From Candidatus Aenigmatarchaeota archaeon (lineage in GTDB: Archaea > Aenigmatarchaeota > Aenigmatarchaeia > CG10238-14 > WAMV01), in NCBI GenBank assembly GCA_015522145.1, contig WAMV01000011.1:1-20211 (forward strand): 20,211 nucleotides of DNA, in the 5' to 3' direction. Position numbers: made by a program. Below, piece after piece: positions 6,001 through 9,000 of this stretch (within the stretch, counting starts at the first letter, position 1; each line of letters begins with the position of its first letter).

Positions 6001-9000
6001 AGGAAAAAATTGCTAAGCAGTTTGACTTTAACGGTGCTATGGTTAGCTAAAAATTAAAAACCCAAACTTTATTTTTTATACTGAGGGGCCGTAGTCTAAC
6101 CAGGTAGGACATTCCGATGAGAACCTAAAGCCTGGCTCCAGCAAGCTGGAGCTTTGAGGAAACCAGGTGGTCGGGGTTCAAATCCCCGCGGCCCCACTAA
6201 CAATTTAAACTTTTGGTAAAAAAATTTTGTATTGTGCTAAGCTTGTTAAAAAGTTTGTACAATCATAAAAGACTTGTTGACGCTGTCAAAGAAGAAGTTG
6301 CTAAAGAGTATAAGATTCCTAAGAAAGCTTTAAACATTCCTGTAAGATATGCTTTGCTTCCTTGGTTGATAATTAAGAAGGGGTTTAGCTATTTGGTTGG
6401 TAAAATATTGGGAGCGTATGCGAGAGAAAAGAAAGAAATTTTAATAGATTATTCTCTTTGGTTCAAAAGTCTTTTTAGCTACAATGCTCTGAAAACATAC
6501 ATTAAAACTCTTGCAGAAGAATTTGCACATGCTGCCCAAGATTATCTTGGAAAGCTTAAAGCGAAAAGATTTGATGAATACATAAAAAATTACGAAAATG
6601 ATGAGAATGAAATAGAAGCTAAAAGAGTTGCAAACAAAGTTGCTGATAGGGTTTTGAACTTATTCCAAAGGAACAAAAGCTACTTCGGTTATAAACTTCC
6701 TTTCTATTCCCTTCTTAGCCTTTTTTAATTTTACCAATGTTTGATAATGTGTGCCTAATGGGGTAATTAATATTCCATTTGTTTTTAATTGTTGAATCCA
6801 TTCATCATAAATTCTTTTTGCAGCTGCACTACAAACTATTCTATCATAAGGAGCAAACTCAGGCAATCCTTTTTTACCATCCTTTAGAAAAATTTTTACA
6901 TTCTCATAACCATATTTTTCCAAGTTTTTCTTACCAAATTCAAAAGCTTGCTTATTTATTTCAACACCAAAAACCATGCCTTTCTTACCAACTATTTCCG
7001 CAATATAAGCTAGCAATATACCTGAACCAAATCCTATTTCTAAAACTTTCATTCCTTTCTTTAGCTCTAACTCTTCAAGCAATATTGCATGCATGTGAGG
7101 TGCTGAAATAGTAACATTGCCAGGTATAGGCAAAGGCTGATCAGCATAAGCTAAATCTTTATACTCCTCTGGTACAAAATCCTTCCTATCAACTTTTAGC
7201 ATTGCTTTCTTAACTTGCCTAGATTTTATGTATCCAAAATTTTCCAAACGCCTAACCATTTCCTCTAGCTTCATGATTTAAAGATTTATTCTTAAGAAAT
7301 GAAAAAATAGAATAATGCAAATTCATAAAGATAAAGAGCTTGAGAAAGCTGTAGAAAAGATAAAAAGCGTTAAGGTACAGGGAGCTAAAGAAATTGCAAT
7401 CTTTGCTCTGAAATTTTTGAAGAAGTACGCTATGAAGCATGGGTTTGGCTTAAGGTTTGAAGTTGCTAGTTATGTGCTTGAACAAACAAGACCAACAGCT
7501 GTAGTTTTGCATAACTGTTTGGAAATAGTGAAAAGAGAGCAAAAAATGAGTACTTTTGATAAGTTGATTAAGCAACTTGAAACTGCAACTAAAAGACTTG
7601 CTAAAAAGGGTGCTAAGCTAATACCTGATGGCGCGACAATAATGACCCATTGTCATAGTGGAGAAGCAGTAGCAACTATTAAAGAGGCTACAAAGAAAAA
7701 AGATGTTAAAGTTATTGCCACACTAACAGAGCCATTAATGCAAGGTGTGAAAACAGCAAGAGAGTTAAAAAGAGCTGGTATAGATGTTCATTTGATTGCA
7801 GATTCTGCAACTGGATTTTTTATGAGACATGTTGATTTGGTTATGGTTGGGGCTGACGCTTTAAGAGTTAGAGAGCCAAAAGGTTTGGTGAATAAAATAG
7901 GTACTTTTAACATTGCACTAGCTGCAAATTACTACAAAAAACCTTTTTACGTTACTGCAAACAGCTTTAAAATTGATAAAAGAAAAAAAATAATTATCGA
8001 AGAAAGACCAAAGGAGGGTTTGATAAACATTAAAGGAATAAAAGCATACAATCCAGCATTCGACATAACGCCCTGGAAATTCGTAACAAAAATAATTAAT
8101 GAAAAAGAAATAATTAATCCTGAAGAATTGGTGAAAAAATATGGCAAAGATTGATTGGTATCTTGACTTTGTAGACCTTAGCTATAAGCCAAGAAAAGAT
8201 GATTTACTTGCCTTGTTCTATTTTGAGCCAGCAAAAGGAATTAGCATAAAAGAAGCTGCTGGTAGAATAGCTAGTGAGAGTTCTGTAGGTACTTGGACGA
8301 CTTTAACAACTATACCAAAAGGGTTGAAAAGGCTTATGGCTAGGGCTTATGAAATTAAAGGAAATTACTGTAAAATTGCTTATCCTTATGATCTGTGGGA
8401 AGAAGGAAGCGTGCCACAATTACTTTCTGGCATAGCAGGCAATATATTTGGTATGAAGGCTTTGAGAAACATTAGGCTTGTTGACGTTAGATTCCCAAAA
8501 AGGTATTTGCGTAGCTTTAAGGGCCCTGAGTTTAGCATAAGAGGTGTTAGGAAATTTATGAAAGTAAAGAAAAGGCCTTTAGTTGCCTGCGTACCTAAAC
8601 CAAAGCTAGGCATACCAACTAATCAATTCATAAAAATTGCTAGAGATTTCTGGCTTGGTGGGGGCGATTTGCTTAAAGATGATGAAAACCTAACTAATCA
8701 AGTTTTCAACAGATTCAAAAACAGATTTGTTAAAGCTATGAAAACAAGGGATAAAATAGAGAAAGAAACTGGAGAAAAGAAAAGTTATTTAGTTAACATA
8801 ACAGCACCAGTTAAAGAAATGGAAAAAAGATTGAAGTTAGTAGCTGATTATGGTAATGAATACGTAATGGTAGATTTTTTAACCATTGGGTTTTCAGCAT
8901 TCCAGTACGTAAGGGAACTTGCTCATGATTATAAGCTTGCTATACATGTACATAGAGCAATGCATGCAGCCATGGACAGAAATCCTAAACATGGTATGAC

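Follow-up and report, generated by a model that had tools for sequence, protein, structure and literature searches.

A candidate C34 methylation guide assembled from the two introns of an archaeal tRNA-Trp precursor

The closest described counterpart of the locus considered here is the intron of euryarchaeal pre-tRNA-Trp, known from Haloferax volcanii and, as sR50, from Pyrococcus (reviewed in PMC4090602, PMC7994747, PMC11408192). This intron lies at position 37/38, has a median length of 65 nt (PMC4090602) and holds all of its boxes, including an antisense stretch before box D that places C34 at the fifth base (+5). It guides modification of both C34 and U39, acts in trans, and is the only modification function of tRNA introns listed in the available sections of the three reviews. 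Within the DPANN, to which the present genome also belongs, the elongator tRNA-Met of Nanoarchaeum equitans contains a single 66-nt intron with both box C and box D elements, for which a C/D-like RNA function is proposed only, as far as the accessible text goes (PMC3491384). An engineered archaeal RNP with one C/D motif and one guide was active and non-specific for the fifth position in vitro, according to the sections available (Hardin and Batey 2006, PMC1635284). In the lineage of the present genome, there are in addition one-intron modules in which a guide and box D' are followed, in the same intron, by a loop and box C' (a K-loop).

We describe a pre-tRNA-Trp(CCA) gene whose two introns appear to build one such guide jointly, and which we believe, with a probability of about 0.7, to direct 2'-O-methylation of its own C34 in cis through a single K-turn; the case is made from sequence comparison. 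The gene occupies positions 6085-6196 on the plus strand of the window, the 20,211-nt stretch of DNA that was analysed; no other tRNA gene with a CCA anticodon was found in the partial source assembly (323 kb, 81% complete). Exon 1 (6085-6110, tRNA positions 1-25) is followed by a 19-nt intron at 25/26 (intron 1, 6111-6129), exon 2 (6130-6141, positions 26-37) with the anticodon CCA at 6138-6140, a 20-nt intron at 37/38 (intron 2, 6142-6161), and exon 3 (6162-6196, positions 38-73). The intron limits are established by in-silico splicing: removal of 6111-6129 and 6142-6161 leaves a clean 74-nt tRNA-Trp(CCA) cloverleaf. Intron 1 has a strict BHB in a BHB scan, with all four central-helix pairs, an outer helix of 5 bp and an inner helix of 3 bp, exactly as a first-pass annotation of this DNA had described it (19 nt from 6111, at 25/26). 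The same annotation placed the start of intron 2 correctly at 37/38 (6142) and gave it 19 nt. The length is 20 nt, because excision of 6142-6160 produces an 8-nt anticodon loop, flagged as a possible pseudogene, and excision of 20 nt produces the clean cloverleaf. The BHB of intron 2 is relaxed, with three of four central pairs and C34 opposite A, a mismatch common to many relatives. Both introns are thus of the archaeal BHB type, with BHBs at the splice sites and a cloverleaf restored on excision. The presence of two introns explains why ARAGORN called no tRNA in the window and why Rfam returned a sub-threshold tmRNA at the gene, which is an artefact.

That archaeal C/D guides target the nucleotide opposite the fifth base upstream of box D, and that the archaeal box C consensus is RUGAUGA, is established knowledge. 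Intron 2 consists of an antisense stretch complementary to G31-G37 (6145-6152), one spacer base, a box D of sequence TTGA rather than CTGA (6154-6157) and a 4-nt tail. G6149, the fifth base 5' of box D, pairs with C34 (6138), the predicted methylation target, so that the arrangement is that of an archaeal box C/D sRNA, with the antisense element 5' of box D and the target opposite the fifth base. The pairing comprises 7 bp with a 4-nt loop when folded as a hairpin in cis, and 8 bp plus a G.U if unconstrained. The guide and box D pattern matches once in the window, against 0.01 matches expected. Intron 2 contains no RUGA 3' of box D, and none arises across its joined ends; the earlier description of it as a C34 guide with box D and without box C was accurate. 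Neither intron holds a second RUGA or a second D-like guide pair. The two-intron design therefore departs from the standard bipartite sRNA with its C/D and C'/D' motifs. It departs likewise from guides with all boxes in a single 37/38 intron, since box C sits in the 25/26 intron.

Five other tRNA genes in this genome, among 26 parsed, have an intron guide whose +5 base falls on their own position 34: Leu-CAA (contig C3, 2984-3098), Lys-UUU (C5, 22084-22221), Arg-UCU (C8, 5621-5737), Glu-UUC (C10, 17769-17885) and Met-CAU (C19, 4778-4890). All five carry guide, box D' and a downstream C', with RUGA within 30 nt after box D; tRNA-Trp, the sixth, is alone in lacking it. The tRNA-Lys gene has, besides its C'-keeping 37/38 intron, a second, upstream anticodon-stem intron with GTGA. 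In the window, tRNA-Thr(UGU) (3258-3384, plus strand) has a 37/38 intron with a D'/C' pair and a further ATGA upstream in the same intron; by eye, the 7 nt of guide that precede CTGA pair with a stretch spanning the 3' splice junction and set C39 at +5, so that this guide could have an effect only before splicing. Two serine tRNA genes on contig C7 (1764-1907 and 45452-45599) also have long introns with many box-like words, those of the latter resembling C, D', C' and D.

The box C that intron 2 lacks is found in intron 1. There, the bases TTCC (6112-6115) are followed by a box C-like strand at 6116-6123, made up of a 3-nt bulge, GAT (6116-6118), the bases of the sheared G.A pairs (6119-6120) and positions 3b-5b. 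TTCC pairs with GGAA at the end of intron 2 (6158-6161) to give a 4-bp closing stem. The box fits the consensus in its RUGA core only, with G.U at 3b:3n and A-U at 4b:4n, so that the first-pass reading of GATGAGA as box C holds for the core and not for the remainder. In the available text of PMC5689011, archaeal C/D K-turns favour U:U and G:C, respectively, at these positions. At the level of sequence, the elements of a K-turn are nonetheless present across the two introns, namely the RUGA core, the 3-nt bulge and a covarying 4-bp stem, and it is very probable that the introns form one K-turn in the unspliced precursor.

When the four bases before the bulge were compared with the four after box D in 26 distinct loci of the same split type (see below), 82 Watson-Crick pairs were counted; permutation of the tails gave 60.2 on average, and none of 5000 permutations reached 82. 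Collapsing the loci to 14 types left 37 pairs against 24.7, and retaining one locus per tail type (10) left 27 against 15.7, each value being reached in one of 5000 permutations. The first closing pair is the most telling, because neither BHB requires its bases (the 5' base lies in the hairpin loop of intron 1 and the 3' base faces U33), yet both sides change: at a fixed 3-nt bulge it is A:U in 17 loci, C:G in three, G:C in two and mismatched in four. Among these four, G131 pairs once the bulge is 2 nt, G150 and L275 have U:A if it is 4 nt, and L274 has A.C. The proposal that TTCC and GGAA close the K-turn is in this way borne out, with part of GGAA also serving BHB2. In some relatives the stem is weak, G126 having one of five pairs at a 3-nt bulge, and G131, G150 and L275 needing a bulge of 2 or 4 nt. 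A stem slid three bases upstream onto box D pairs nearly as well overall (73 of 104 against 82 of 104), which reflects the TGA repeat of most tails; for the other slides the count is 14-25 pairs. In the 18 tails that start with TGA the slid and K-turn registers score 57 and 60 of 72 over four pairs, and a fifth pair forms in 11 of 18 in the K-turn register and in none of 18 in the slid one. The K-turn register also leads in the eight other tails (22 against 16 of 32) and in the present gene (four pairs against two).

The split arrangement recurs in relatives. A guide and box D pattern looser than that of the first-pass annotation, which had reported 76 of 371 genomes and no control matches, was matched by 117 of the 371 genomes of the class, false positives included, with few matches in the reversed control. 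From these matches 30 and then 80 loci were fetched and others were added, giving 107 parsed tRNA-Trp loci. By hand, an N gap in G136 mistaken for an intron was corrected, the truncated G280 was dropped, and G151, missed by the parser, was added; G161 enters the count twice. Loci were classed as short-intron when at most 7 nt separate box D from A38. This applies to ten genes, that of the present genome (G000) and those of G105, G106, G115, G123, G126, G131, G133, G150 and G225; G225 is counted as short, the ATGA in its tail following box D after a single base and leaving no room for a loop. Every one of the ten carries RUGA in an upstream intron (ATGA in nine), and the RUGA core is found in the upstream intron of every split-type locus. 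Among the 97 long-intron loci, which keep C', 85 have no upstream intron; one is present, counted between positions 8 and 31, in the other 12, with RUGA in four (ATGA in two). G155 is a borderline member of the long class, with an 8-nt tail that contains GTGA and no upstream intron. Its 22-nt Trp intron (L318; G155, contig C50, 2841-2871), in which GTGA follows three bases after box D, may be either a K-loop of minimal size or a degenerate form, and is probably the relative to which the first-pass annotation had ascribed a doubtful box C. That annotation had named four relatives of the split type (G088, G110, G113 and G118). The type does recur, in nine relatives of the class; G118 keeps its C', and the other three names could not be matched.

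Fisher tests on these counts give p = 2e-8 for the presence of an upstream intron and p = 0.0017 for RUGA within it (four of 12 in the long class), values that are overstated since kin are treated as independent. Independent pairs drawn on a tree give, for an upstream intron with RUGA, seven pairs that all point the same way (sign test, median p 0.016, range 0.016-0.031); for any upstream intron the median p is 0.0625, which is not significant. The tree, a quick maximum-likelihood reconstruction of topoisomerase VI B (top6B) has 59 rows, among which 11 genomes of unknown state, G225 and the Korarchaeota do not figure. On it, the nine split rows need eight changes, seven of them forced by well-supported branches, and are no more clustered than shuffled labels; repeated gain, reversal and transfer of the tRNA gene look alike on a single-gene tree of this kind.

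Two further samples were selected on intron 2 alone. In metagenomes, selection on intron 2 only gave 44 matches, of which 21 are short-intron tRNA-Trp genes, several being nearly identical to one another or to class genomes; an upstream ATGA is present in all 20 readable loci, the remaining one being cut. Of the other 23 matches, two are tRNA-Trp genes with a long intron and the rest are due to chance. A wider pattern scan of contigs yielded at least 80 loci, mostly bacterial repeats, with nine archaeal tRNA-Trp loci among the matches listed. A Korarchaeum locus led to a scan of its family, in which 30 of 36 genomes matched; 30 loci were read and 25 are tRNA-Trp. Each of the 25 has a 7-nt tail without RUGA and a D-loop intron with RUGA, and the pyrimidine run before that RUGA pairs at five of five positions with the tail of intron 2. 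Being close kin, they count as about one origin. An upstream box is thus found in all 55 readable short-intron loci (10, 20 and 25, the genome and metagenome sets overlapping). Selection on intron 2 alone always brings an upstream box C intron with it, and the association survives tree-based pairing; on both grounds, the proposal that the guide is assembled from two introns stands.

Most loci have their upstream intron at 25/26; that of G150 and L275 interrupts 22/23, and the Korarchaeota have theirs in the D-loop. These positions were assigned partly by eye: the automatic BHB parser is noisy and misplaced several upstream introns, and G225, G131, L271, L306 and the korarchaeal genes were positioned manually. 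The three positions, in two phyla, point to at least three origins. In G150 (contig C11, near 10784) and L275, the 13-nt intron at 22/23 begins with ATGA, and it is the D-loop of the exon, not the intron, that provides the closing-stem strand; the bulge is 4 nt. Extra acceptor-stem introns occur in the tRNA-Trp genes L267, L269, L273 and L205, some split-type loci being three-intron genes, and T-loop introns occur in many outer-order relatives. Searches with narrow patterns for the short-intron design in Leu-CAA/Met-CAU and in U34 tRNAs of 118 genomes of the order found none; of the six matches (four Leu-CAA/Met-CAU, two U34), five prove to be ordinary introns that keep C', and the sixth is no tRNA.

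The K-turn and the two BHBs compete for the same bases. Two partners are open to the 5' arm of intron 1: its own 3' arm (6112-6114 taking part), in which case BHB1 forms and box C is concealed, or the intron 2 tail, in which case the K-turn forms. Box D, whose GA lies in the central helix of BHB2, and the tail also belong to BHB2, and neither BHB can form without positions 27-31. The overlap of the K-turn with BHB1, already remarked on, is confirmed and extends to BHB2, all three folds being mutually exclusive. Protein-free nearest-neighbour energies are -49.4 kcal/mol for the free fold, -46.0 with BHB1 forced, -42.3 with the K-turn forced, a value to which sheared pairs and protein contribute nothing, and -41.3 with BHB2 forced. 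The minimum-energy free fold contains the guide-anticodon hairpin. In the absence of protein, the fold in which intron 1 is ready for splicing lies 3.7 kcal/mol below the K-turn fold, and intron 1 could therefore be cut before an RNP forms. Box C/D K-turns generally require L7Ae to fold, by what is available of PMC5689011, so the protein would have to capture the K-turn before the endonuclease cuts. Time for this would exist if introns are removed as in Methanopyrus, where removal is late, after modifications, in the accessible part of that study (PMC3695527).

We propose that, before splicing, box D of intron 2 would combine with the box C-like strand of intron 1 into one kink-turn, closed by the 4-bp stem that joins the beginning of intron 1 to the end of intron 2. 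This kink-turn would be bound by L7Ae, which would recruit Nop5-fibrillarin; the guide would fold back on its own anticodon loop as the 7-bp hairpin, bringing C34 to face the fifth base upstream of box D for 2'-O-methylation in cis. Because the K-turn, BHB1 and BHB2 share bases, the RNA would then have to refold twice before both introns are excised. Action in cis is preferred because guide and target pair over just 6-8 bp in each of the 25 distinct split-type hairpins, and at least 5 nt always separate A36 from the guide, leaving room for a loop. The guide register is conserved throughout these loci, although it is only a partly independent result, because the search patterns fixed, or nearly fixed, the spacing of guide and box D.

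Genes for L7Ae and the tRNA splicing endonuclease are present in this assembly. Fibrillarin and Nop5 were not found in its 323 kb, a PF01269 match being the neighbouring PIMT gene. Both occur in all 17 other genomes tested, including the nine split-type class relatives and one Korarchaeum, and their genes are adjacent in most relatives, for which reasons an assembly gap is the simplest reading.

Other explanations keep the K-turn and differ in what it does. The same two-intron K-turn might direct Cm34 in trans, one precursor guiding a second, for example with two of them on one Nop5 dimer. The Haloferax Trp intron is shown to act in trans in the available text of the reviews (PMC4090602, PMC11408192), the Nop5 dimer has two RNA sites, single-site RNPs lacked specificity in what is accessible of PMC1635284, and the unconstrained duplex is 8 bp plus a G.U here. 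Such a duplex is, however, of 6-8 bp in 19 of the 25 hairpins, which we judge short for a bimolecular guide, where 9-12 bp is the norm, and the cis hairpin of the minimum-energy fold would block a second molecule. We regard action in trans as unlikely. It is also rather improbable that an L7Ae-bound K-turn serves only folding, protection or the timing of splicing, with the guide kept as a hairpin and C34 methylated by other means or not at all. The missing fibrillarin and Nop5 genes and the mutual exclusion of K-turn and BHBs would suit such a role, as would the dispensability for growth of the Haloferax intron and its methylations (noted in the portion of a review available). Against it, six tRNA genes with different anticodons all place position 34 at +5 in this genome, a guide-to-D spacing one base longer, which the scan of 371 genomes permitted, gave six fetched matches that are all non-tRNA, and fibrillarin and Nop5 are present in all split-type relatives tested.

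The remaining two dispense with the joint guide. Were intron 2 a decayed guide, the ATGA and the complementarity would be by-products of BHB constraints or of intron 1 having been copied from intron 2. The second closing pair is indeed accounted for by the two BHBs; in the majority type, intron 1 has a 3' arm similar to the intron 2 tail, and the stem slid by three bases pairs nearly as well; and four of the 12 control upstream introns also have RUGA. Decay would nevertheless have spared both guide and box D, and it fails to predict an upstream box in every readable short-intron locus, a first closing pair that varies on both sides, or three intron positions in two phyla; we consider it very unlikely and already largely refuted. 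Least credible is a box C supplied by intron 2 itself, through circularisation of the excised intron or through the TGA repeat after box D in a dimer. A second TGA does follow box D directly in 18 of 26 loci, but in the present gene the joined ends create no RUGA and the tail has no TGA, korarchaeal tails are runs of G, and the obligatory upstream intron is left unexplained.

The proposed cis-acting two-intron guide differs from its nearest relatives in defined ways. It works like the euryarchaeal Trp guide, with the same tRNA, 37/38 intron and C34 register, but is built on 20 nt with one guide and one K-turn, with box C in another intron and the target between the boxes. From the Nanoarchaeum tRNA-Met intron it differs in dividing its boxes between two introns. 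The engineered hemi RNP (PMC1635284), as described in the text available, is artificial and two-piece, whereas this locus is natural, conserved in register, and would have its target tethered in cis. The one-intron modules of the same lineage share guide, box D position and target; in them C' follows box D in a K-loop, whereas here an upstream intron supplies box C to a two-stranded K-turn. A guide built from two introns was not found in the open-access literature searched; tables in supplements could list such genes.

The split form may descend from an ancestral one-intron guide-D'-loop-C' module whose C' was lost after a box C had become available in an upstream intron. A short deletion between two TGA words would suffice for this loss, which would have occurred with upstream introns at three different positions. 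Why archaea keep multiple, oddly placed tRNA introns is an open question. Here, a non-canonical intron would gain a role visible to selection through the mutual dependence of the two introns, and the layout is not a local oddity, being fixed in all korarchaeal genes read. We put forward tentatively, at slightly less than even odds, a broader idea: that non-canonical introns (25/26, 22/23 and D-loop, in two phyla) were recruited at least three times as donors of box C; that the pre-tRNA may be its own guide, substrate and timer, an L7Ae-locked K-turn hiding both splice motifs until C34 is methylated; and that tethering through the 6-8 bp hairpin may confer on a single-K-turn RNP the site specificity in which the engineered single-site RNPs were deficient. 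Two questions could be put directly to the 112-nt precursor: whether tethering the target in cis makes a single-K-turn archaeal C/D RNP site-specific, and whether the order of splicing can be controlled by modification.

Two other features of the genome were noted. An intron-containing tRNA-Ile(UAU) gene is present at two contig ends (C7, 79568-79670, and C13, 77-179) with one intron base different; these are probably overlapping ends. In the window, at 7315-11249, genes for a ribose-1,5-bisphosphate isomerase-like protein, form III RuBisCO and AMP phosphorylase lie together, a set that makes up a nucleoside salvage pathway common in small archaea.
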